Below are positions 1,628 through 60,903 of a stretch of DNA of 64,000 nucleotides, piece by piece (position 1 is the first letter of the stretch; every line of letters begins with the position of its first letter). Made by a program: the position numbers and the translations under genes. The DNA lies in contig CAZRFU010000016.1 of assembly GCA_964599475.1 (NCBI GenBank), positions 17,619 through 81,618 of the forward strand. Direction: 5' to 3'. Below the pieces are notes generated by a model that did no database searches, had not been told where the DNA came from, and worked only from the letters and a program-made list of their open reading frames with translations. The DNA comes from an uncultured Thermoanaerobaculia bacterium. GTDB lineage: Bacteria; Acidobacteriota; Thermoanaerobaculia; Multivoradales; CAZRFU01.

Positions 1628-3157
1628 ATGGTCTCCGAACGAGCACCACGTCACCTCGCGCGTCACCTCGCGGGCGCATTGACGATTTTCGCCGCCGGCA
1701 GTGTCTCAGCCCAGGAGATCGGCGTCGACGACTTTCGCATCAGCGCCATGGGAGGCAGCGGAGATAGTGCCTACACGGCGATCTACTCGTCGGTTGCCCA
1801 CAACCCCCTCGCCGAGGAGTACCTGGTGGTGTGGCTCGGCGACACCAACACCGGCGACGGCGACAACCACTACCAGATCTTCGGGCAGCGTATCGACGTC
1901 GCGACCGGTGCCGAGCTCGGAACCGACGACTTCGTGATCGCAAGCCTCGGCGGCCCCTTCGGATCGGCGCCGTTCGCCTGGGTGACGGTGGCTCACGGCT
2001 CCGGCCAGAACGAGTACCTGGTCGTGTGGTCGACGATCACCGGGCTCGGCAACGGCAGCGACTACGAGATCTTCTGTCGTCGCGTCGCCGCCGACGGCAC
2101 ACCCCTCGGCGTCGCGCTCCAGATCAGCCACATGCACAACCCGACCCAGCCGCAGAACGAGAGCCAGTACACCGCCACCGAGCCCGCCGTCGCCTACAAC
2201 CCGCTCGCGGACGAGTTCCTGGTGGTGTGGGCGGGCGACCATGGTGTCGGCGGACTGGTCGACGAGGAAGTCGAGATCTTCGGGCAGCGCATCAGTGCCA
2301 CGACCGGCCTCGAGATCGGCACCGACGACGTGCGCATCAGCGACGTCGGAGGCACCGGCAGTACCTTCTCGGATGCCCGCTCGCCCGACGTCACCTACAA
2401 CTCGATCGACGACGAGTACCTGGTGGTGTGGGCCGCCGACGATCCCGATGCGGGCACGGCCGACAACGAGCTCGAGATCTACGGGCAGCGCCTGACCTCG
2501 CTCGGCGGCGAGATCGGCGTCAACGACTTCCGCGTCACCACCCATGGCCCCGCCAACGAGCCGGGCTACTCCGCGCTCGAGCCCGCGGTCGCCTTCAGCC
2601 CGGATCACTCCGAGTACCTGGTGGTGTTCAGCGCACCCGAAGCCTGGTCGCAGGCGGTCGGACCCGGCTTCGAGATCTACGCCCAGCGTCTCGACGCGAG
2701 CGCAAGCGCACTCGGCGGCGCCTTCAGGCTGAGCGATGTCGGCGGCCTGGCGGAGCTCGCTTTCGACGCCGACACCCCCGATGTCGCCTATGCCCCGGCT
2801 TCGGAGCGCTGGATCGTCGTCTTCCGAGCCGACGACAACGTCGGCGGGCAAGTCGACGGCGAGCGCGAGGTCCACCTGCAGGAGGTCGATGCGGCAACCG
2901 GCGCCGAGGTCGGCGACAACGACGCCCGCGTCAGCGACATGGGCCCCACCGGCAGCACGATCTACCAGACCTCACTGCCCACCGTCGCTTGCGCCGCTGC
3001 GACCGAGTGCCTGGTGATCTGGCGCGGCGACGACAACGTCGGCGGCCTGGTCAACGACGAATTCGAAATCTTCGGCCAACGCTGGGCAACCACACTGCCG
3101 GCCTCGATCTTCGAGGACGGGTTCGAAAGTGGCGACACCTCGGCGTGGAGCCTGTAG
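1628..3157 (+). CDS. Secreted seven-repeat protein (putative beta-propeller) ending in a DGFESGDTSAWS tail
   Basis: AAGGAG lies 6 nt upstream of ATG 1628. The N-terminus is signal-like (LAGALTIFAAGSVSAQE). Seven repeats of about 60-70 aa each contain E[YF]LVVW ... EI[FY]GQR ... G. The C-terminus is IFEDGFESGDTSAWSL. Confidence 0.8.
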   Translation: MVSERAPRHLARHLAGALTIFAAGSVSAQEIGVDDFRISAMGGSGDSAYTAIYSSVAHNPLAEEYLVVWLGDTNTGDGDNHYQIFGQRIDVATGAELGTDDFVIASLGGPFGSAPFAWVTVAHGSGQNEYLVVWSTITGLGNGSDYEIFCRRVAADGTPLGVALQISHMHNPTQPQNESQYTATEPAVAYNPLADEFLVVWAGDHGVGGLVDEEVEIFGQRISATTGLEIGTDDVRISDVGGTGSTFSDARSPDVTYNSIDDEYLVVWAADDPDAGTADNELEIYGQRLTSLGGEIGVNDFRVTTHGPANEPGYSALEPAVAFSPDHSEYLVVFSAPEAWSQAVGPGFEIYAQRLDASASALGGAFRLSDVGGLAELAFDADTPDVAYAPASERWIVVFRADDNVGGQVDGEREVHLQEVDAATGAEVGDNDARVSDMGPTGSTIYQTSLPTVACAAATECLVIWRGDDNVGGLVNDEFEIFGQRWATTLPASIFEDGFESGDTSAWSL

Positions 3158-15592: not shown

Positions 15593-15987
15593 TGCTACGC
15601 CTCGCCGTCGCCGTCGCCGCCGGCGGGGCCCTCGGCGCCCTGCTGCGCTGGGGTGTCGGTCTGGCGGGCCTCGAGCTCGCGCGTCGGCTCCCGGAGCCGG
15701 CGCGCTGGTGGCCTCTCGGCACCCTGGCAGCCAACGCCCTCGGCTGTTTTGCCATCGGCCTGCTCGTCGGGATCTTCGAACACCGCTGGGCAGCCCCGAG
15801 CGGGTGGCGAGCCTTTCTGGTGGTCGGGCTCCTCGGCGGATTCACCACCTTTTCGAGCTACGCTCTCGAGGCGGTGCAGATGGTCCAAGACGGCCGGGCC
15901 CGCGAAGCCCTCGGCTACGTGCTGGTTTCAACCGTCGGCGGGGTGCTGCTGGTCGCCGCCGGCTGGACCCTCGGCCGAGCGACGTGA
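15592..15987 (+). CDS. crcB: Fluoride ion channel CrcB/FluC
   Basis: 131 aa and four TM helices. GTLAANALGCF and LLGGFTTFSSY signature motifs. Confidence 0.9.
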   Translation: MLRLAVAVAAGGALGALLRWGVGLAGLELARRLPEPARWWPLGTLAANALGCFAIGLLVGIFEHRWAAPSGWRAFLVVGLLGGFTTFSSYALEAVQMVQDGRAREALGYVLVSTVGGVLLVAAGWTLGRAT

Positions 15988-15994
15988 GCAGTTG

Positions 15995-16075
15995 CCTACG
16001 CACCCTGCACCCCGGCCGTGCACCCCGGCCGATGAAAATCCGGTCTTCAGTACCCGGTACCTGGTACCCTCGTGG
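15995..16075. repeat. Member of the heptad-repeat intergenic element family
   Basis: 13-nt tandem duplication TGCACCCCGGCCG x2 (16006-16031), the core GATGAAAATCCGGTCTTCAG, and heptads GTACCCG GTACCTG GTACCCT (16050-16070). About 45 nt is a near-exact inverted copy of 30925-30968. Confidence 0.8.
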
Positions 16076-16105
16076 GCGCCTGCCAACCGTGTAAGCTCAC
16101 TCGCG

Positions 16106-16582
16106 ATGCGACTCGCCAAGTACTCGATACTCGCCGCCGCCGGCATGCTCCTGACCTGGGGCTGTGGCCCAGGCGAAAGCACGGGCGAACCGGCCGCAGC
16201 CCCCAACGAGCTGGTGACCGAAGAGGTCGCTGCACCGGTTGACGCGGCAGTCGATGTCGACGCCGACCCCAAAGCAATCGCCCGCAGTCACGAGAGCGTC
16301 GGCGGCGTGTTGCCCTCGGACTTTCCCGCAAGCTTCACTCTGCCGCGACCCGCGAGCATCATCGATCTGAGCTCGACCGACGACGGTTGGAGCACCGTAG
16401 TGCTTCGTACGCCCTCGTCACCCGGCCAGGTCGCAGGATTCTTCGCCCGCGAGCTGCCCCGGGGTGGCTGGACTGAATACGGTGGGCTGTGGATGCGCGA
16501 CCGCACCCAGGTCCGGGTGACGGTGAAGGTGCTCCCCGACGGCGCCCGGGTCCAGCTGGACTACCGCACCTCCGCCAGCTAG
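16106..16582 (+). CDS. Lipoprotein, hypothetical
   Basis: ATG 16106. Signal peptide with lipobox, MRLAKYSILAAAGMLLTWGC. No recognisable domain. Confidence 0.7.
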   Translation: MRLAKYSILAAAGMLLTWGCGPGESTGEPAAAPNELVTEEVAAPVDAAVDVDADPKAIARSHESVGGVLPSDFPASFTLPRPASIIDLSSTDDGWSTVVLRTPSSPGQVAGFFARELPRGGWTEYGGLWMRDRTQVRVTVKVLPDGARVQLDYRTSAS

Positions 16583-16642
16583 GAGGACTCGGCGGGGCGG
16601 CCCGGTCGGACGTGAATGGCGCCGTCCGAGCCCGAGGACCAA

Positions 16643-16772
16643 GGTACCGGGTACCAGGTACTCGTCGGAGCGCGAAAGCCACCCTCGGACGAAGCGCGCG
16701 AACGCCCGTCCATGTCGACCCGACGGGACGCCCGCCCTCCGGCTGGTCCCGGGTACCGGGTCCCGGGTCCCT
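16643..16772. repeat. Heptad-repeat intergenic element with two arrays bracketing a core
   Basis: GGTACCG GGTACCA GGTACTC (16643-16663) and GGTCCCG GGTACCG GGTCCCG GGTCCCT (16745-16772) flank an ~80-nt GC-rich core. The core begins CGTCGGAGCGCG, which is conserved next to the heptads at 31.0 kb and 35.7 kb in the opposite orientation. Confidence 0.8.
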
Positions 16773-16776
16773 ATCT

Positions 16777-17199
16777 CTACCGCCCAGCCGCCACCAGCCG
16801 TGCCCGGCACAACTCGATGGTGCGCATCGAGTCGCGGTAGCTCTCGTCCTGCGCTGCCACCACGAGCTTCTCCGCTGCAGCCATCGCCGCCTTGGTCGCG
16901 TCGACATCGATCTGCTCGGGGCCCTCGGCCTGATCGGCCAGCACCGTGACGACGTTGGCGCGCACCTCGCAGAAACCGCCGGACAGCGCAAAGACCCGAG
17001 TCTTCGCGCCGTCTTTGACCCGCATCACGCCGATGTCGAGCGTCGCCACCAAAGCGGCGTGGCCGGGGAGCACCCCGAACTCGCCCTTGCTGCCGGGCAG
17101 GATGACCTCGTCGCATGCGCCCGACAGAACCTCGCGATCGAGGGTGACGAGATCGAGGTGCAGGCGACCGGACGGCCCTGAGGTCGGTGCGTTTGCCAT
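16777..17199 (-). CDS. atpC: F1 ATP synthase epsilon subunit
   Basis: 140 aa. LPGSKGEFGVLPGHAALV motif. Last gene of the atp operon. The listed ORF start at 17643 is antisense run-on. Confidence 0.9.
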   Translation of the reverse strand: MANAPTSGPSGRLHLDLVTLDREVLSGACDEVILPGSKGEFGVLPGHAALVATLDIGVMRVKDGAKTRVFALSGGFCEVRANVVTVLADQAEGPEQIDVDATKAAMAAAEKLVVAAQDESYRDSMRTIELCRARLVAAGR

Positions 17200-17203
17200 G
17201 ACC

Positions 17204-19608
<2,405 letters not shown>

Positions 19609-29213: not shown

Positions 29214-29674
29214 AAGAGATGCTCGGCGGTTGCGGTGGAGGACGGTTCGTCGGCACCAACCTGCTGTGGCTCGAAGGCGCGTCGGCGCCGGCCCTCGAGT
29301 CCCCCGCTCACGCCGAGCTCGAGGTGCTCGCCAGCGGCAAGCTCATCCGCTGCTCCTACACCTGGGTCTTCGAGGGCCAAACCCAACACGGTTCGATGGT
29401 GGTCGCTTGGAACGGTCGAGCCGAGCGCGCGAGCGCCGGGTGGATCGACTCGTTTCACCAGAGCAGCCACGTGATGCAGCTCGAGGGCGCGCTCGAGGAC
29501 GGCGGCGCGGTCGCGGTCTCCGGCACCTACCCCGCGCCGAGCGGGCCCGATTGGGGGTGGCGGATCCGGCTCGAATCCCCCACTGCCGACGAGCTCCTGG
29601 TGCTGATGGACAACGTCAGCCCTGACGGCCTTGCCGAGCCCGCCGTCCGCATCGACCTACGACGTCAAACCTGA
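29210..29674 (+). CDS. Hypothetical protein (DUF1579-like by recollection)
   Basis: GAAGGAGG upstream. ATGA overlap with the ParA-like gene and TGATG overlap with the dehalogenase gene. Confidence 0.6.
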   Translation: MKEMLGGCGGGRFVGTNLLWLEGASAPALESPAHAELEVLASGKLIRCSYTWVFEGQTQHGSMVVAWNGRAERASAGWIDSFHQSSHVMQLEGALEDGGAVAVSGTYPAPSGPDWGWRIRLESPTADELLVLMDNVSPDGLAEPAVRIDLRRQT

Positions 29675-30573
29675 TGCGGGTCCTTCGCACCCCCGCCGAA
29701 CGTTTCGTCGGCCTCCCGGACTTTCCCTGGGTGCCGCGCGAGACCGAGGTCTCCGGGCTGCGCATGTGCCACGTCGATGCCGGCGAGGGTCGGCCGATCC
29801 TGCTGCTCCACGGTGAGCCGACCTGGTCGTTCCTCTACCGCACCATGATCCCGGTGCTGGTCGAGGCGGGATTTCGGTGCCTGGCACCGGACCTGATCGG
29901 CTTTGGCCGCTCCGGCAAACCGGCCGACATCGGTGCGTACTCCTACGCCCAACACGTCGCCTGGCTCGCTGAGTGGATCGAAGCCAACGATCTTTCGGAC
30001 CTGGTCTTGGTCGCCCAGGACTGGGGCTCTTTGCTGGGACTCAGGTTGGTGGCGGAACACCCAGGGCGTTTTGCCGCCGTGGTGATCGCCAACGGCTTCC
30101 TGCCCACCGGCGACCAGCGGGTGCCGGCGGTGTTTCGGCTGTGGCAGAACTTCGCGCGGTGGTCACCCTGGTTCCCAGTCGGGCGCATCGTGCAGTGGGG
30201 ATCAGCCACCACCCTGCCGCCCGAGGTCGTCGCCGCGTACGACGCACCGTTCCCGACCTCGGCCCACAAAGTCGCCGCCCGGGCCTTCCCGCGCCTGGTG
30301 CCCACCACCCCCGACAATCCCGCCAGCAGCGCCAACCGCGCCGCGTGGAAGGTCCTCGAAGGGTGGCACAAGCCCTTTCTGACCGCCTTCGGCAGCCGCG
30401 ATGCGATCTTTCGCGGCGCCGATCGGGTGCTCCAACAGCGGATCCCCGGCGCCAAGGGCCAGCCCCACACGATCATCCGCGGCGCCGGCCACTTCATCCA
30501 GGAAGACCGCGGGCCGGAGCTGGCGCGAGTGATTGCGGAGTTTGTGCGCGGGCTGGAAGGGGTTGGGGGTTAG
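29674..30573 (+). CDS. Haloalkane dehalogenase family alpha/beta hydrolase
   Basis: LLLHGEPTWSFLYRTMIP, DLIGFGRSGKP and the nucleophile elbow VAQDWGS. Collinear with DhlA/DhmA-type enzymes. Confidence 0.85.
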   Translation: MRVLRTPAERFVGLPDFPWVPRETEVSGLRMCHVDAGEGRPILLLHGEPTWSFLYRTMIPVLVEAGFRCLAPDLIGFGRSGKPADIGAYSYAQHVAWLAEWIEANDLSDLVLVAQDWGSLLGLRLVAEHPGRFAAVVIANGFLPTGDQRVPAVFRLWQNFARWSPWFPVGRIVQWGSATTLPPEVVAAYDAPFPTSAHKVAARAFPRLVPTTPDNPASSANRAAWKVLEGWHKPFLTAFGSRDAIFRGADRVLQQRIPGAKGQPHTIIRGAGHFIQEDRGPELARVIAEFVRGLEGVGG

Positions 30574-30586
30574 GGGTTAGGGGTTA
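30559..30586. repeat. Tandem heptads GGGGTTG GGGGTTA GGGGTTA GGGGTTA
   Basis: Four direct heptads span the dehalogenase stop codon (TAG 30571-30573). Confidence 0.85.
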
Positions 30587-30857
30587 GGCTCCGTGCAGAG
30601 GCTGTCGGCGGGTTGCTACGAGCACCATCGGTCCGTGGTCGCCACTCGAGGGTGATCGCGTGCCGGCCGGCAGGAGCGCGCAGGGCGAGGAAGGCGTGGT
30701 CGGCGATCGCCACCTCGAGCGGCCCACCCCCTACGGTCGAAGCCCGCCAACCCGGCCACGCCGGTTCGGTCACCACCACCCATCCGTCACTCTGCATCGA
30801 CACTTCGAGAGCCAAGCGGTTCGGCGCCTGCCGACGGGCGACGACTTGCCCGCTGGG
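30570..30857 (-). pseudogene. C-terminal remnant of a YfhO-like polytopic membrane protein
   Basis: VVARRQAPNRLALEVSMQSDGWVVVTEPAWPGWRASTVGGGPLEVAIADHAFLALRAPAGRHAITLEWRP matches the YfhO C-terminal pattern (...PGW.A.vdG......F..v.vpaG.H.v...Y.P). Upstream the frame runs straight into repeat-element sequence, with no N-terminal part. Confidence 0.55.
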
Positions 30858-30884
30858 ATTGCCAACCTCGGCCGGCGGCGCGCC

Positions 30885-31061
30885 GGGTGCACCACGGAGA
30901 CATGGGGAACTGCTCAGAAAATGGGTACCGGGTACCAGGTACCGGGTACTGAAGGCCGGATTTTCATCCGCTGGGGTGCACCACGGAGGCATGGGGAACT
31001 GCTCACAGATTGCCCCGAACGCCACTCCGACAAGTACCCGATACCCGGTACCCGGTACCTT
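30885..31061. repeat. Composite heptad-repeat intergenic element (best example of the family)
   Basis: The unit GGGTGCACCACGGAGRCATGGGGAACTGCTCA occurs twice, 88 nt apart (30885-30920 and 30973-31009). Heptads GGTACCG GGTACCA GGTACCG GGTACTG lie at 30924-30951, the core GAAGGCCGGATTTTCATC follows, and heptads GTACCCG ATACCCG GTACCCG GTACCTT lie at 31034-31061. Confidence 0.85.
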
Positions 31062-31131
31062 GCAAGCAGTGCGCGGACGGCTCGATCGTTCCTCCAGCCG
31101 GGGCGCACCACCGAGGGATCCACGGCAACGA

Positions 31132-32775
31132 CTAATCGTTCTGCATCAGGCCGCGGATCCGCCCACCGGGCTCGATGCGGACACGCCGCGCCGCGGGATC
31201 CTTGGGGAGTCCCGGCATGGTCATGATGTCGCCCGCAAGCGCCACGTAGAACCCGGCGCCGGCGGACAGCCGCACCTCGCGGATGGTGGCGATATCGCCA
31301 GGCGCCGGCCGCCCGCGTTTGGCCGGATCGTCGCCGAGGGCCAGGTGCGTCTTGGCGACACACACCGGCAGGTCCGGCCCCTCGATCGCGATCGCGTTGG
31401 CGAGGTCCTTCTTGGCCTTGGGGGTCAGCACCACGTCACTGACACCCCACGCGGTACGACCGATCAGCTTGAGCTTCTCCTCGGGGTGGACATCGAGCGG
31501 GTAGAGATGCCGGACATCCACCGGGTGAGGCTGCGCGGCCAGGACTTCGGCGACGGCGTCGGCGAGCTCGAGGGAACCATCACCTCCCTGGGCGAAGCCG
31601 TCACACGCCGCCACCGGCGTACCGCGGTCACGACCATGGGCGCGCACGATGTCGAGCTCCGCATCCGAATCGGTGGCGAAGCGGTTGAGGGCGACCACCG
31701 CCGGCACGCCGAACACCGCCAACGTCTCGAGGTGTTTGTCGAGCACGTCGAGGCCCTTGCGCAGCGCCGCTTCGTTGGGATCCCCAAGGGTTCCCGCGGC
31801 CGCGCCACCGTGGTGTTTGAGGGCCCGCAGGGTCGCGACGATCACCGCCGCGTTGGGGGCGAGGTCCTTGCGCCTTGCGACGATGTCGAGGTACTTTTCG
31901 CCACCGAGGTCGCAGCCGAAGCCACCTTCGGTGACCACGACATCGGCGTGGGCGAGTGCAATCCGGCTCGCGACCACACTCGAGCAGCCGTGGGCGATGT
32001 TGGCGAACGGCCCGCCGTGCACGAACGCCGGCCCTCCTTCGCGGGTCTGCACCAGGTTCGGCATGTGGGCGTCGCGCAGCAGGGCGGTCATCGCCGCAGC
32101 CGCCTGGATGTCGCTCGCGCGGACCGCCGAGCCGTCCGGGCGCCGACCGATGACGATCTTGCCGAGCCGGCGCTCGAGGTCGGCGAGGTCGTCGGCGAGG
32201 CAGAAGATCGCCATCACTTCGCTCGCGGCGGTGATGTCGAAGCGGGTCTCGCGCGGCACGCCGTGCACCGGGCCGCCGAGGCCGATGATCGCGTGCCGCA
32301 ACGCCCGGTCGTTCATGTCGAGCACGCGCGGCCAGGTCACGGTGCGCGCATCGATCGGCTCGCCGAAGTGCAACGCGGCGTCGAGCAGCGCCGCCAGCAG
32401 ATTGTGGGCCGCCGAGATCGCGTGGAGATCACCGGTGAAGTGCAGGTTGATCGCGTCGGCCGGCTCGATCGTCGCGAGCCCGCCGCCGGTGCCACCACCC
32501 TTGACCCCGAACACTGGGCCGAGCGAGGGTTCACGCAGGGACGGCACCGCGAGCTTGCCGCGTTTGCGCAAACCCATGGCGAGCGCAATCGACATCGAGG
32601 TCTTGCCTTCGCCCGCGGGCGTCGGGTTGATCGCAGTGACGAGGACCAGTTGGCCTCGACGGGCATCGGCTCGGGGTGCAGCCGCGATCTTGGCGCGGTG
32701 GGGACCCCACGGGAGGACGACGTCACGGGCGAGACCGAGCTCGTCCGCAACCGCTTCGATTGGACGCAGTGTCAT
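31132..32775 (-). CDS. fhs: Formate--tetrahydrofolate ligase
   Basis: TPAGEGKTSMSIAL, EPSLGPVFGVKGGGTGGG and full-length collinearity with Fhs. Confidence 0.95.
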   Translation of the reverse strand: MTLRPIEAVADELGLARDVVLPWGPHRAKIAAAPRADARRGQLVLVTAINPTPAGEGKTSMSIALAMGLRKRGKLAVPSLREPSLGPVFGVKGGGTGGGLATIEPADAINLHFTGDLHAISAAHNLLAALLDAALHFGEPIDARTVTWPRVLDMNDRALRHAIIGLGGPVHGVPRETRFDITAASEVMAIFCLADDLADLERRLGKIVIGRRPDGSAVRASDIQAAAAMTALLRDAHMPNLVQTREGGPAFVHGGPFANIAHGCSSVVASRIALAHADVVVTEGGFGCDLGGEKYLDIVARRKDLAPNAAVIVATLRALKHHGGAAAGTLGDPNEAALRKGLDVLDKHLETLAVFGVPAVVALNRFATDSDAELDIVRAHGRDRGTPVAACDGFAQGGDGSLELADAVAEVLAAQPHPVDVRHLYPLDVHPEEKLKLIGRTAWGVSDVVLTPKAKKDLANAIAIEGPDLPVCVAKTHLALGDDPAKRGRPAPGDIATIREVRLSAGAGFYVALAGDIMTMPGLPKDPAARRVRIEPGGRIRGLMQND

Positions 32776-35605: not shown

Positions 35606-35830
35606 GGGACCGGGGACCAGGGACCCGGGACCCGGGATACCAGAGACGGGCACTTGATTTCATCCCCCGGGGTGCAGCACCCAGGGGTGCATGGGAACTG
35701 CTCAGAAGGATGCCCTCACCGCTCCGGCGAGTACCCGATACCCGGCACCCGGTGCCACGCCGGTGGCGCACAGACGGTCCGATTTCATTCAACCTGGGCG
35801 TACCACCGAAGGCCCATGGGCAACTACACA
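35606..35830. repeat. Composite heptad-repeat intergenic element
   Basis: Heptads GGGACCG GGGACCA GGGACCC GGGACCC GGGATAC (35606-35640), GATTTCATCC, the unit GGGGTGCAGCACCCAGGGGTGCATGGGAACTGCTCA (35669-35705), heptads GTACCCG ATACCCG GCACCCG GTGCCAC (35731-35758), then a second degenerate GATTTCAT...CCATGGGCAACT unit. Collinear with 30950-31061. Confidence 0.85.
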
Positions 35831-51501: not shown

Positions 51502-51512
51502 CAGCCCGTGGT

Positions 51513-51533
51513 GCGCCCCGGGTCCCGGGTCCC
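51513..51533. repeat. Short heptad array GCGCCCC GGGTCCC GGGTCCC
   Basis: Lies in the 36-nt gap between the convergent stops of sbcC and the 51538 gene. Same GGGWCCC heptad as at 16.7 kb and 35.6 kb. Confidence 0.7.
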
Positions 51534-51537
51534 TGAG

Positions 51538-54574: not shown

Positions 54575-57500
54575 TCACACCCACTCGGCGCACAGCAGTT
54601 CCGCCTGGGCCAGCACCGTCTTGACCGCTTGGTCCTGGAGATCCGGCGGGTAGCCCCAACGATTGAGGATGCGTTTGACCATCACCCGCATGCGTGCGCG
54701 GGCGCTTTCGCGGACGGTCCAGTCGATGGTGGCGCTCTTCCTCACCTGGGTGATCAGCTCGGCGGCGATCGCGCGCAACTTCTCGTCACCCATCGCCTGC
54801 ACCGCGCTGTCGTTGGTGGCGAGCGCGTCGTAGAAGGCGATCTCGTCGTCGCTGAGACCGAGCGCTTCGCCGCGTTTCCCGGCGGCTTCGAGGTCCTTGG
54901 CGAGCTTGATCAGCTCTTCGATGACTTCCATCGTCGAGATCGCGCGGTTGTGGTACTTGTTCAGCGTTTCCTTGAGCTTTTCGCTGAAGACCTGGCTCTC
55001 GACCAAGTTGCGCTTGCCGCGCACCTTGAGCTCGTCTTCGAGCAGCTTGCGCAGGAGCTCGGCGGCGACGTTCTTGTGCTGCAGGCCGCGGACCTCGGCG
55101 AGGAACTGGTCGCTCAAGATCGAGATGTCGGGTTTCTGCAGACCGGCGGCGGTGAACACGTCGATCACTTGGCCGTCGGTGGTGATCGCCTTGCTCACCA
55201 ACTGGCGGATCGCCGCGTCGATCTGTTCGGGGGTCTTGCCGCTCCCTGAGCCACCCTTGGCGAAGGCCGCTTGCAGCGCCTGGAAGAACGACACGTCGTC
55301 GCGGATCGTCGTCGCCTCGTCGGTTGCCGCCGCGAGCGCGAAGGCACGCGAGAGCTCCATCACCACCCTGGCCCACCGTTGTTGACCGTCCGGCTGCGCC
55401 AGGATGTGCTCGCGGCCGGCGGGAATCAACGCGAGGCGTTCGCTCGGCGAGCCGCTGATCCAGCGGCTCCAATCGAAGCCGTTCAGCATCGAGCAGGCGA
55501 CCTCGTGCTTCTCGAGCATCACCGCAATCGCGGCAGCCGTGTCGAAGGTCGGATCACCCTTGCCGCCGCTTTCGGTGTAGGTCGCCAGTGCCCGTTTGAG
55601 CTGATCCGCGAGCCCGAGGTAGTCGACCACCAGGCCGCCGGGCTTGTCGCGAAACACCCGATTCACTCGTGCGATCGCCTGCATCAGGCCGTGGCCGTGC
55701 ATCGGCTTGTCGACGTACATGGTGTGCAGACACGGCGCATCGAAGCCGGTCAGCCACATGTCGCGCACGATCACGATGCGGAAGGGATCTTTGGCGTCTT
55801 TGAAGCGCGTCGCCATCCGCCGCCGACGGTCTTTGCTGCGGATGTGCGGTTGCCACGCAGGGCCGTCGTCGGCGCTGCCGGTCATCACCACCTTGACCAC
55901 ACAGCTGCGGTCCTTTTCGGCCTCGGCATCGTCGCCGACACTCGCCCATTCGGGGCGAAGCGCGATCAGCGCGTCGTAGAGGTCGACGCAGATGCGCCGG
56001 CTCATGCACACCACCATCGCCTTGCCGTCCATCGCCTCGAGGCGCTTCTCGAAGTGCGCCACCAAGTCCGCCGCGATCAACGCGATGCGTTTCGGGTCGC
56101 CGACCAAGGCTTCGAGCGCCGCCCACTTGCTCTTGAGCTTCTCGCGGTGGGTCGGCTCTTCGCCCTCGGTGATCTCGTCAAACTCGTCGTCGAGCTTGGG
56201 GACCTCGGCGGCGTTGAGGCTGAGCTTCGAGATCCGGCTTTCGTAGTAGATCGGCACCGTCGCCTGATCCGCCACCGCTCGCTGGATGTCGTAGATCGAG
56301 ATGTAGTCGCCGAACACCACCCGCGTGTTGGCGTCGGCGAGCTCGATCGGGGTGCCGGTGAAGCCGATGTAGCAGGCGTTCGGCAGCGCGTCGCGCAGGT
56401 TGCTCGCAAAGCCGTACGACAACGCGCCGGTCTTGGGGTTGACCTTGGCGCCGAAGCCGTATTGGCTGCGGTGTGCTTCATCGGCGATCACCACGATGTT
56501 CTGCCGCGCACTCAGCACCGGCATGGCTTCGCCCTGCTCCGGCAGGAACTTGTGAATGGTGGTGAAGACCACGCCGCCGCTCGCGACCGTCAGGAGCTCG
56601 CGCAGCTGCTCACGGCTGCCGGCCTGCACCGGCGTCTGCCCGAGCACGTCGGCGCAGCGCTGGAACTGGCCGAAGAGCTGGTCGTCGAGGTCGTTGCGGT
56701 CGGTCAACACCACCAGCGTCGGGTTCTGCATCACCGGGTGGCGTACCACTCGTGCGGCGAAGAAGAGCATCGAAAAGCTCTTGCCGCTGCCCTGGGTGTG
56801 CCACACCACCCCGGCGCGGCGGTCGCCCGGCTGGCCGCCGCGCATCCGCCCGGCCCAATAGGTGCCCGGCGTTTCCTTCGCCTCGTCGGCTCGCGCCAAC
56901 CCACTCGCCCGCACCGTCTCCTCGACCGCGGCGTTGACCGCGTGGAACTGGTGGTAGCCGGCGATGATCTTGTGCAGCGCCCCCGAGTCCGGATCCTCCT
57001 CGAACACGATGAAGTGCTGCAGCAGCTCGAGGAAACGCCGCTGGTCGAACACTCCGCGGATCAACACCTCGAGCTCGAGCGCATTCGCCGGCGCGTCGCC
57101 CTCGCCGTCGACCGTGCGCCAGACCTTGAACCACTCCTGGTTCGCCGTGAGCGACCCCATCCGCGCCTGCAGTCCGTCACTCACCACCAACACCGCGTTG
57201 TACTGCAACAGCGACGGAATTTCGGCCTTGTAGGTCTGCACCTGCGCGTAGGCGCTCCAGATCGTCGCGTTTTCATCCGCCGCGTTCTTGAGCTCGATCA
57301 CGCCGAGCGGCAGCCCGTTGACGAACACCACCAGATCCGGCCGGCGGCTGTGCTGGCCCTCGATCACCGTGAACTGGTTCACCACCAGCCAGTCGTTGGC
57401 GGCGGAATCGGTGAAGTCGACCAGCCGCACGTGGTCGCCGGCGATCGACCCGTCCAGGCGGCGGTATTCCACCTGCACCCCGTTGCGCAGCAGCTTGTGG

Positions 57501-57763
57501 AAGGCACGGTTGGTCTGGATCAGCGACGGCGTGGCGATCCGCACCACCCGGCGCAGGGCATCCTCGCGAGCGTCCGCAGGGATCGTTGGGTTGAGCCGCG
57601 CAATAGCGTCCCGCAGCCGGCCGGCGAGCAAGACGTCGCCAAACGAATCCCTCTCCGCCGCCGGTTCGCCCGGCGCCAGGTGTGGCCCGTGGCCGACGGC
57701 GTAGCCGAGACCAGCAAACCAGTCGAGGGCGGCGGATTCGACGATGGATTCGTCGAGACTCAT
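54575..57763 (-). CDS. hsdR: Type I restriction enzyme R subunit
   Basis: PD-(D/E)xK nuclease region ([19 protein letters not shown]), SF2 motor motifs ([12 protein letters not shown]-like IADEAHRSQ) and a DUF3387-like C-terminus. 1062 aa. Confidence 0.95.
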
Positions 57764-58219: not shown

Positions 58220-58300
58220 GGCAAGCAAGCGCTCCGGCGTTTTCGGCCGAGTCTATCCGTCCCGACGGGCGCGGGTCCGCAAGTTGGCGATGGTCGCGCT

Positions 58301-58533
58301 CCGGGGCCCCAACGGGGCCCAATGAGATAGCCCAGGGCAACGCCCTGGGTAGGCAAGCCCCCGTCCCTTCCCAAGCCCTGAAAGGGCGAAACATCCCTCC
58401 GCGACGATCCTGCGCCGCAACCGCCCCGGAGTTCCGCCCTTTCAGGGCTCGGAACCAATGGGGGGTGCCGCGGTACCCAGGGTGTCGCTTCGCTCTACCC
58501 TGGGCTATCTCATCTCGCCCCTTTGGGGCTTCG
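58301..58533. repeat. Head-to-head pair of REP-like elements
   Basis: The forward unit (58301-58397) contains GGCCCCAACGGGGCCCAATGAGATAGCCCAGGGCAACGCCCTGGGT...GCCCTGAAAGGGCGAAAC. The inverted variant unit is at 58428-58533. Each has three GC-rich hairpins. Confidence 0.85.
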
Positions 58534-58687
58534 GATCGGCAGCCCGGCACCGGCGGGGCACCAGTGGATCGCCCCAACGACCGGCCCGCGATGCAGCACC
58601 CCGCCGTCGGGTCCCCGTGGCCCCAACCGGCACAGGTGGATCGCCCCAACGCCCGCCAGTGGCACGGCACCGCACGGATGCTCGGCT

Positions 58688-58784
58688 CCGGGGCCCCAAC
58701 GGGGCCCAATGAGATAGCCCAGGGCAACGCCCTGGGTTGGGCAAGCCGGTCCCATTCCCGAGCCCTGAAAGGGCGAAACATCCC
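58688..58784. repeat. REP-like element (forward unit, second copy)
   Basis: Nearly identical to 58301-58397 and 60300-60396. Shares a 25-nt 5' extension (GGCACCGCACGGATGCTCGGCTCCG) with the 60.3-kb copy. Confidence 0.85.
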
Positions 58785-60273: not shown

Positions 60274-60508
60274 TCGGCACCGCACGGATGCTCGGCTCCG
60301 TGGCCCCAACGGGGCCCAATGAGATAGCCCAGGGCAACGCCCTGGGTGTCGGGCAAGCCCACCGACTCCCCGAGCCCTGAAAGGGCGAAACCTCCCGCGA
60401 CGGTTCGCCCCGCCCCCTCGGAATTCCGCCCGTTCAGGGCTCCGGACCTCCAGGGGTGCCGCTGTACCCAGGGTGTCGCTTCGCTCTACCCTGGGCTGTC
60501 TCATCTCG
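60274..60508. repeat. Head-to-head pair of REP-like elements (third locus)
   Basis: Forward unit at 60300-60396 with the 5' extension from 60274. The inverted variant unit at 60420-60508 is truncated where it abuts the hsdR stub. Confidence 0.85.
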
Positions 60509-60515
60509 TGAGCTG

Positions 60516-60903
60516 GGTTCACCACCAACCAGTCGTTGGCGGCGGGATTGGTGAAGTCGACCAGCCGCACGTGGTCGCCGGCGATCGACCCGTCCGGCCG
60601 GCGGTATTCCACCTCCACGCCGTTGCGCAGCAGCTTGTGGAAGGCACGGTTGGTCTGGATCAGCGACGGCGTACCGATCCGCACCACTCGGCGCAGGGCA
60701 TCCTCGCGAGCGTCCGCAGGGATCGTTGGGTTGAGCCGCGCAATAGCGTCCCGCAGCCGGCCGACGAGCAACACCTCGCTGAACGAATCGCGCTCCGCCT
60801 CCGGTTCGCCGGGGGCGAGGTGAGGCCCGTGGGCGACGGCGTAGCCGAGACCGGCAAACCAGTCGAGGGCGGCGGATTCGACGATGGATTCGTTCAAGCT
60901 CAT
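60516..60903 (-). pseudogene. hsdR: 5' stub of an hsdR gene (first ~129 codons)
   Basis: Aligns gap-free with 57376-57763 at a constant offset of 3140 nt, with about 93% identity by manual count. The frame leaves hsdR sequence after DWLVVN and reads into the REP element. Confidence 0.85.

Follow-up and report, generated by a model that had tools for sequence, protein, structure and literature searches.

A mosaic heptamer-repeat element between convergent lipoprotein and atpC genes of a Thermoanaerobaculia bacterium, and its probable place in a lineage-wide family

In a stretch of 64,000 nt from an uncultured Thermoanaerobaculia bacterium (contig CAZRFU010000016.1; the whole stretch is called the window here), the spacer between a lipoprotein-like gene and the convergent gene atpC holds two arrays of tandem 7-nt units, H1 and H2, on either side of a G+C-rich core. 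Our analysis indicates that the complete 194-nt spacer (16583-16776) is one composite element, beginning right after the lipoprotein stop codon and with its last array stopping 4 nt short of the atpC stop codon. On balance, this block is probably one copy of a lineage-wide family of mosaic, non-coding heptamer repeats, similar to the repetitive extragenic palindromic sequences and bacterial interspersed mosaic elements (REP/BIME) or to miniature inverted-repeat transposable elements (MITEs). Elements of this family lie immediately 3' of stop codons, and close strains differ through their gain, loss and remodelling. The relationship among the copies, their place right behind stop codons, their presence or absence at an orthologous site, the change in copy number by whole heptads and a fixed polarity of the inverted array pairs, the last both in the window lineage and in other phyla, were all observed directly.

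The best-supported assignment is that the element represents, in another phylum, the heptamer class already described in Geobacter. Most likely it is not a dedicated terminator but DNA that is tolerated or selfish and has a mild side-effect through its structure. Heptamer repeats have been catalogued repeatedly, as short tandemly repeated repetitive (STRR) sequences and as the GGGNATC, TAACTGA and GGGACCG sets, without an accepted function or origin, and for annotation purposes the block studied here is neither a gene, nor a known RNA, nor a demonstrated terminator.

The composite element beside atpC

The locus comprises the following features, in window coordinates:

16106..16582, plus strand: lipoprotein-like gene of 158 aa, called as an open reading frame (ORF), whose TAG stop codon (16580-16582) abuts the element
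16583..16642, plus strand: tail module (M/G'-like) with the hairpin CGGACG-N10-CGTCCG, collinear with the modules found after the fhs stop codon
16643..16663, no strand assigned: array H1, with spacer bases G and A ("R phase"); about 2 units in L162
16664..16744, no strand assigned: core, opening with GTCGGAG and closing with CTCCGGCT, two motifs that pair and lengthen the stem of the arrays
16745..16772, no strand assigned: array H2, 4 units; 2 units in the strain with 99% AtpC identity, and 4 with other spacer bases in L162
16777..17199, minus strand: atpC, ATP synthase epsilon subunit, last gene of the atp operon; Pfam ATP-synt_DE_N in orthologues

H1 consists of three heptads (GGTACCG GGTACCA GGTACTC) and H2 of four (GGTCCCG GGTACCG GGTCCCG GGTCCCT), the latter reading AGGGACC CGGGACC CGGTACC CGGGACC on the atpC strand, and the two are inverted relative to one another. 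A first-pass annotation, made from the sequence letters only, had placed both arrays at these positions, which we confirm: the heptad pattern GGTMCCNGGTMCC, allowing at most one mismatch, matched 27 times in the window against 1.35 times in dinucleotide shuffles, with 0 of 100 shuffles reaching 27, and Tandem Repeats Finder called both arrays (rows 16642-16661 and 16745-16771) as the head-to-tail 7-nt units typical of long simple-sequence repeats (LSSRs). In the sense of the lipoprotein gene the order is stop codon, 60-nt tail, H1, GTCGGAG, the 81-nt core, CTCCGGCT, H2, ATCT and the atpC stop codon, which lies at 16777-16779 on the minus strand. The gap between H2 and this codon is therefore 4 nt (ATCT) and not the 5 nt given earlier; similarly, the core had been described as GC-rich and 80 nt long, and it is indeed rich in G+C (74%, against a window mean of 68%), with a length of 81 nt. 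The short inverted repeats reported in the core are present (GCGCG at 16670, GCGCGC at 16694, CCCGTC at 16705 and GACGGG at 16722), but not above chance.

The labels given to the two convergent genes hold: the signal peptide of the 16106-16582 product ends in TWGC, hence the designation lipoprotein-like, and orthologues of AtpC carry the Pfam domain listed above. Orthologues of the lipoprotein gene adjoin atpC in the relatives L111, L112, L117, L152 and L162. An ORF that overlaps the element (16616-16840) was considered as a coding candidate and ruled out by indels of 14 nt and 2 nt between strains, which speak against any coding function. Searches against Rfam returned nothing over the whole window at gathering thresholds, and nothing at E<=1 in 15900-16900.

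Minimum free energy and consensus folds predict one long rod-like hairpin, as well as a second, small one after the lipoprotein stop codon. Transcribed from either side, H1 and the adjoining GUCGGAG would pair with CUCCGGC and H2, giving a rod of about 135 nt that would begin 5 nt after the atpC stop codon. An effect of the kind attributed to REP hairpins at 3' ends appears likely, in which the 3' ends of both convergent mRNAs would be shielded and read-through hindered. By this means the element may take the place of the canonical bidirectional terminator found at this site in L117, a more distant relative. The arrays themselves probably grow and shrink by whole 7-nt units through replication slippage.

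Orthologous sites and further copies in the window

Orthologous junctions were located through AtpC homologues and the contigs that encode them, and five states were found in five lineages. In L111 and L112 (91% AtpC identity) the genes meet in overlapping stop codons (CTAG), which leaves a spacer of zero length without a seed heptad. In L117 (70% AtpC identity) a 121-nt spacer without heptads contains a textbook bidirectional intrinsic terminator, caaaaagggcgccggcaaccggcgccctttgttttt, and shows no homology to the atpC block. The remaining three states are versions of the element itself. Ten independent assemblies from different sequencing runs (L152-L161; 99% AtpC identity) have a 180-nt spacer that is identical to that of the window except for an H2 of 2 units in place of 4, an exact difference of 14 nt, and one base substitution. 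In L162 and L163 (94%) the spacer is 190 nt long, with an H2 of 4 units that differ in their spacer bases, an H1 of about 2 units, and a core and tail about 88% and 82% identical, respectively, to those of the window. The element is thus carried by two close lineages in 12 independent assemblies (L152-L163), and the array sizes of its three versions, given as H2+H1, are 4+3, 2+3 and 4+~2.

Taken together, these orthologous states establish that the element is real and not an assembly artefact, and that close lineages are polymorphic for its insertion or deletion. The comparison of regions downstream of atpC, which the first-pass annotation had recommended, thus separates carriers (L152-L163) from non-carriers (L111 and L112). 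Copy number shifts by whole units between strains, as expected of LSSRs; core and tail are 82-95% identical among the carrier lineages, and this remainder drifts like ordinary non-coding DNA. With five lineages in five states (no spacer, a classic terminator and three versions of the element), the atpC site constitutes an unusually clean natural experiment, in which termination, mRNA stabilisation and protein binding are directly testable across strains.

In L117 the terminator, carried by the spacer at 611-733, is composed of an A-run, a G+C-rich hairpin and a T-run, which indicates that canonical terminators are in use in the wider lineage. A scan of GTDB genomes with AtpC peptides gave no close relative, and a metagenome scan with the junction pattern CTCCGRCNAGTACCYGRTACC returned 24 stretches, all of them unrelated coding sequences, and no further copies.

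The arrays are not confined to the atpC spacer. Six further arrays of the same type, overlooked in the first-pass annotation, lie at 16049-16069, 30924-30950, 31033-31059, 35606-35637, 35730-35756 and 51517-51533, and they bring the number of element loci in the 64 kb to five, all after stop codons, with three in convergent spacers, two in codirectional spacers and none between divergent genes. Apart from the atpC block, the copies are:

15988..16105, plus strand: single-unit copy in the spacer between crcB and the lipoprotein gene, made of the crcB stop codon, an M-like module, GATGAAAATCC (G module) and the array 16049-16069
30886..31131, minus strand: copy downstream of the fhs stop codon, with arrays 31033-31059 and 30924-30950 and three M modules; located at the yfhO deletion junction
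35606..35823, minus strand: copy downstream of the stop codon of a GGDEF gene, with arrays 35730-35756 and 35606-35637; synteny ends at 35615
51502..51537, plus strand: miniature copy filling a 36-nt convergent spacer, made of the stop codon, CAGCCCGTGGTGCGCC (short M module) and GGGTCCC x2.4

Alignment of these copies reveals a common architecture. In the sense of the upstream gene, the repeat unit consists of a stop codon, module M (consensus TGAGCAGTTCCCCATGCCTCCGTGGTGCACC), which sits directly after the stop codon in the aligned units, module G (which contains GGATGAAAATCC) and a heptad array. A complete element joins such a unit, with G or A in the seventh position of its array (GGGTACC; R phase), to a second part, which opens with GTCGGAG and closes with an array carrying C or T at that position (GGTACCC; "Y phase"), so that the two arrays are inverted relative to each other. 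Sequence similarity accompanies this architecture, since 16018-16069 and 30930-30981 are 94% complementary over 52 nt, and the fhs and GGDEF copies are homologous throughout (tail, z = 7.5; core, z = 14; local alignment against shuffles). By the same procedure, the tail of the atpC copy shows a modest likeness to the fhs tail (z = 3.4, a score reached by 10 of 1000 shuffles).

Dispersed multiple copies with presence/absence polymorphism, the part of the suggested MITE-like insertion that is borne out, are also evident from a comparison of the window with the 71.7-kb contig of a relative (blastn), which is collinear with it over 13.3-35.6 kb at 86-95% identity. All four large differences within these ~22 kb of synteny coincide with heptad elements: the atpC-lipoprotein spacer, the crcB-lipoprotein spacer, a yfhO deletion at the fhs copy, and the point within an array, 35615, at which synteny stops. 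The crcB-lipoprotein spacer illustrates the range of states, as it is 55 nt long in L112, where it has one lone GGTACCC, reaches 118 nt and one array in the window, and in L111 and L113 extends to 271 nt and holds three arrays.

At two of these breakpoints the neighbouring genes differ as well. Positions 30589-30885 of the window are what is left, at the 3' end, of a yfhO-like gene of which the relative has an intact copy (742 aa; L143:11196-13424), and the deletion junction, which abuts the heptad element downstream of fhs, was confirmed in an independent contig of the same species (L142). Beyond 35615 the window has the GGDEF gene and the relative has small ORFs and a peptidase, with a single GGTCCCG at the matching position of the relative (L143). 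In addition, at least nine Logan contigs among L153-L161 (L153-L158, L160 and L161 were inspected) end 543 nt past the lipoprotein stop codon, within the repeated G module beside the array 16049-16069 (window ~16040), which suggests that the repeat family breaks assemblies. Arrays of this type disrupt short-read assemblies and mark synteny breakpoints, a point of practical relevance for annotation.

Known repeat classes and arrays in other phyla

REP and BIME sequences of enterobacteria and pseudomonads are extragenic and palindromic, and are found after stop codons between codirectional or convergent genes, as mosaics of alternately oriented palindromic units and short motifs whose number per locus varies between strains; co-transcribed, they form hairpins that stabilise the upstream mRNA. 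The elements described here are likewise extragenic mosaics of palindromic units and short motifs, placed after stop codons and variable in number per locus. They differ in that the palindromic unit is a tandem heptad array and not a single stem-loop of 20-40 nt, and a conserved head of the GTAG type was not evident in the aligned window copies. With Correia repeats (CREE), enterobacterial repetitive intergenic consensus (ERIC) sequences and the pneumococcal BOX elements, in which the number of boxB copies varies, they share a small size, the lack of coding capacity, multiple copies, strain-variable presence, long co-transcribed hairpin folds and a modular organization with variable tandem modules. 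Unlike those of bacterial MITEs, their true ends are not inverted repeats, and neither a clear target-site duplication nor, within the 64 kb of the window, a cognate transposase was seen with them.

The nearest precedent is the set of GGGACCR repeats of Geobacter metallireducens, in which 49 arrays of four units (Gmet_H4xx) are placed mostly downstream of one gene and upstream of the following one, many of them starting 5-8 nt past TAA, TAG or TGA, with 11 loci containing (+)/(-) pairs; these arrays are absent from G. sulfurreducens, including the orthologous sites (2009, PMC2700814). The likeness extends to the heptad itself (GGGACCR there, GGGACCN/GGTACCN here), the size of about four units, the position after stop codons, the polarity of the pairs and the absence from orthologous sites of a sister species or relative. 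In the window, H2 and the array 35606-35637 (GGGACCG GGGACCA GGGACCC GGGACCC) are each made of about four GGGACC heptads and H1 is a GGTACC variant; H1 and H2 form an inverted pair, with H2 starting 4 nt past the atpC stop codon. On the other hand, the Geobacter arrays belong to a different phylum (the window looks acidobacterial), have an A-rich flank (GGRAAAAC) and are in some cases located inside genes; no such 3' flank was present in the window elements, which are flanked by GTCGGAG/CTCCGRC and by the M and G modules. These modules, the cores of ~82 nt and the KpnI-type palindrome GGTACC are additions of the window elements, and outside the heptads there is no homology to Geobacter.

Other heptameric LSSRs provide a broader frame. 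Among the long simple-sequence repeats of prokaryotes, heptamers are the most abundant class, according to the summary of Mrazek 2007 given in PMC4679880, and further sets include the cyanobacterial STRR sequences and the TAACTGA repeats of Beggiatoa (MacGregor 2015, PMC4679880). For the GGGNATC repeats of Xanthomonas and Nostoc, four units are preferred and divergent spacers avoided, the G-rich strand being the sense strand within 50 nt of a stop codon or the antisense strand upstream of the next ORF (Rehm 2015, PMC4692102). The window arrays resemble such LSSRs in having 7-nt tandem intergenic units, with about four preferred, located within ~50 nt of stop codons or just upstream of ORFs, in their depletion between divergent genes, in their strain-variable copy number and in their patchy distribution across phyla. 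They are unlike them in unit sequence, in that the atpC arrays are not canonical G-quadruplex (G4) motifs, and in being embedded in a larger mosaic with common modules and inverted pairs around a core.

A scan of one genome per GTDB species for exact matches to three perfect GGTACCN units returned at least 110 stretches with GGTACC heptad arrays, often with several arrays per genome. The matches listed, to which the context figures given here refer, include Acidimicrobiia, Gemmatimonadota, Acidobacteriota, Planctomycetota, Chloroflexota, Bacteroidota and Streptomyces, among others. According to crude gene calls based on third-position G+C (GC3), 39 arrays lie in codirectional, 15 in convergent and 7 in divergent spacers, usually 5-30 nt 3' of a stop codon, and, read in the direction of transcription, the seventh base is G and C equally often (G 13, C 13), without strand bias. 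Inverted pairs within 300 nt were R..Y in seven cases and Y..R in none, often 82-90 nt apart. In one metagenome-assembled genome (MAG) of Planctomycetota, three loci have a common C8/G7 hairpin core between the arrays, and in MAGs of Acidobacteriota the array architecture is kept and the cores differ again. A search of the 110 listed loci of other phyla for the window's M, G and core modules found none of them, so that only the heptads and the architecture are held in common. Full-text literature searches on GGTACC arrays gave nothing relevant.

The pairs seen in Acidobacteriota, Planctomycetota, Chloroflexota, Acidimicrobiia, Gemmatimonadota and Geobacter follow one rule: a GGGTACC-type array comes first and a GGTACCC-type array second on either strand, a few nucleotides from stop codons and around lineage-specific hairpin cores. 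A bolder, and in our view unlikely, proposal would treat these inverted GGTACC/GGGACC pairs as one cross-phylum class of gene-boundary element read by a conserved factor, possibly a mobilising enzyme or a DNA- or RNA-binding protein that would mark the ends of coding regions, with the 7-nt register and the hexamer palindrome acting as a functional signal and not as a by-product of slippage. Neither the polarity of the pairs nor the recurrence of the hexamer across phyla is explained by slippage alone, which leaves recognition by a conserved factor a small share of probability.

Array carriage by phages was limited to 7 IMG/VR stretches; five of the 7 viral stretches with three perfect GGTACC heptads (L145-L150) are tiny contigs of 2114-2157 nt. 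The listed GTDB loci also hold many unrelated, non-palindromic heptad arrays. A far denser version of the phenomenon was observed in a Bacteroidia MAG (L081; 762-2136 and 3545-3669), where each intergenic spacer is filled by long arrays of differing heptads (CGGTGAT, GTCAGCR, GACCAAR and others), some of them in nested inverted brackets. An autonomous element between the distant inverted arrays of L081 was considered and rejected, as the ORFs found there are ordinary housekeeping genes and the arrays merely fill the spacers.

Alternative explanations and further repeats in the window

Several results weigh against the interpretation of the atpC block as a member of a mosaic, REP/BIME- or MITE-like family. 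Its core is not significantly similar to that of any other copy (z = 0.5-0.7) and its tail matches theirs weakly; consequently, the case for its membership is built on its arrays, junction motifs, architecture, dimensions (cores of 81-82 nt) and position. The fold energy of the 194-nt block is not in excess of that of shuffled sequences (z = -0.85 for the plus strand and -1.45 for the minus strand), and conservation of the structure is limited to 1 compensatory pair, with 5 wobble-kept changes against 4 broken pairs in the core; of the secondary structure that the first-pass annotation had proposed to predict, then, a long hairpin is obtained and an energy beyond that of shuffles is not. The arrays had also been likened to the terminal repeats of a miniature element, which they are not, since a 60-nt module lies outside H1 and the ends of the element, GAGGACTCGG... 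(16583) and ...GGTCCCTATCT (16776), are not inverted repeats. A consistent target-site duplication was found neither at the other copies nor in other phyla, and none is clear at the block, whose flanks read CTAG|...|CTAC against a single CTAG in L111, a CTA repeat that is also needed for both stop codons. No transposase linked to the element was found in the 64-kb window, and together with slippage of the arrays in the manner of simple-sequence repeats these absences count against the MITE-like half of the earlier proposal in its strict sense. Whether the window clade gained the element or the L111 lineage lost it is not certain, and the gene calls behind the cross-phylum counts are, as indicated, crude.

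The other half of that proposal, a functional terminator, fares worse. In its explicit form, the block would be a dedicated bidirectional, U-tract-independent terminator, selected to part the atp operon from the lipoprotein gene, with the arrays as an extendable stem. In its favour, it is located precisely between convergent stop codons, where L117 has its canonical bidirectional terminator; both strands are predicted to fold into a long hairpin rich in G+C; no enrichment of the canonical hairpin-plus-T type was seen anywhere in the window, so that terminators of another kind may serve; and convergent spacers hold three of the five copies. Nevertheless, we regard this role as unlikely. No terminator-like site was detected in 16583-16776, where the predicted G+C-rich hairpin is not followed by a U-tract (T-run), its stability equals that of shuffles and covariation is lacking; one canonical-terminator scan hit in the window is a heptad array itself (30943-30924, then CATTTTCT). 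The closest element-free lineage, moreover, has overlapping stop codons and no spacer at all. Similar elements also fill short codirectional spacers, ending 3-30 nt before the next start codon (L088, L002 and L059), a placement also seen at flgH-flgI-flgJ and cobT-cobS of Geobacter, and a strong terminator just before a start codon would silence the downstream gene.

Judging from sequence features, the arrays might instead be binding arrays for a sequence-specific protein, the core being incidental; one candidate would be a protein that binds the palindrome GGTACC/GGKMCC on DNA as a dimer (for instance a factor of the nucleoid or of DNA topology, or a mobilising enzyme), another an RNA-binding protein with a footprint of ~7 nt. 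The preservation across phyla of a palindromic hexamer with a free seventh base, while cores differ, would fit such a protein, as would the predominance of arrays of 3-5 units and the unbiased seventh base, which is expected of a double-stranded symmetric site. The R..Y polarity (7:0 among the matches listed, and 11 pairs in Geobacter) is likewise not demanded by a thermodynamic hairpin alone. Still, this explanation comes without a candidate protein, a spacing of 7 bp would place successive sites on different faces of the helix, and the abundance of non-palindromic heptad arrays in the same genomes suggests that the 7-nt period may reflect slippage; we therefore consider it rather improbable.

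Formation of G-quadruplexes by heptamers of the Xanthomonas/Nostoc type, each a GGG followed by four loop bases, on the sense strand or in the RNA after the stop codon, is very unlikely as a general explanation, and for the atpC locus it is rejected, because neither H1 nor H2 has four G3 tracts on either strand. A regular-expression scan for four G3 tracts with loops of 1-7 nt found no motif in 16583-16776 on either strand, and elsewhere in the window only at 30550-30576 and at 35606-35629, the latter within a heptad array. GGGTACC and GGGACCN are indeed G3N4 units, arrays of about four are typical, the R..Y polarity fits, and the positional rule agrees with Rehm et al. 2015 (PMC4692102); however, many arrays in other phyla have A or T as the spacer base, hence only GG tracts, and single arrays show no G-versus-C strand bias. 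Least probable of all appears a purely local expansion, in which pre-existing single heptads would have been amplified by slippage without mobility or a family. The retention of one heptad at "empty" sites (GGTACCC in L112, GGTCCCG in L143), the differences of whole heptads between strains and the commonness of heptamers reported by Mrazek 2007, as cited in PMC4679880, would be in line with it. Slippage, though, is unable to make a 60-nt tail and an 81-nt core; non-repetitive modules of 30-80 nt are common to distant loci at 75-94% identity; and the atpC site of L111/L112 has neither a spacer nor a seed heptad. A dispersed mosaic family, remodelled by slippage within its arrays, is the reading that we prefer.

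The window contains other repeats and signals. An AGGGGTT x4 array, telomere-like as TTAGGGG and CCCTAAC when read on the opposite strand, occupies 30558-30588, at the extreme 3' end of a hydrolase gene (29674-30573); it is conserved in relatives (L143:13414-13440 and L142:3150-3180) and accounts for the canonical G4 motif at 30550-30576. With regard to the origin of neighbouring genes, the best named hits of AtpD (17204-18706) are proteins of Thermoanaerobaculia/Acidobacteriota MAGs at 79-84% identity, which puts the organism close to that group, and those of fhs (31132-32775) are from Myxococcota at 63%, which is at odds with the AtpD signal; fhs may have been acquired horizontally. An unrelated repeat family of ~100 nt (GCTCCGGGGCCCCAACGGGGCCCAATGAGATAGCCCAGGG...) with inverted partners occurs at 58298-58397, 58685-58784, 60295-60394 and 58498-58538, and a 300-nt direct repeat joins 57376-57675 and 60516-60815 at 93% identity. 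Finally, region 1700-3100 contains coding repeats with a period of ~198-201 nt (families D2, D4, D7, D8 and D11) within a large ORF, which probably encodes a repeat-domain protein.

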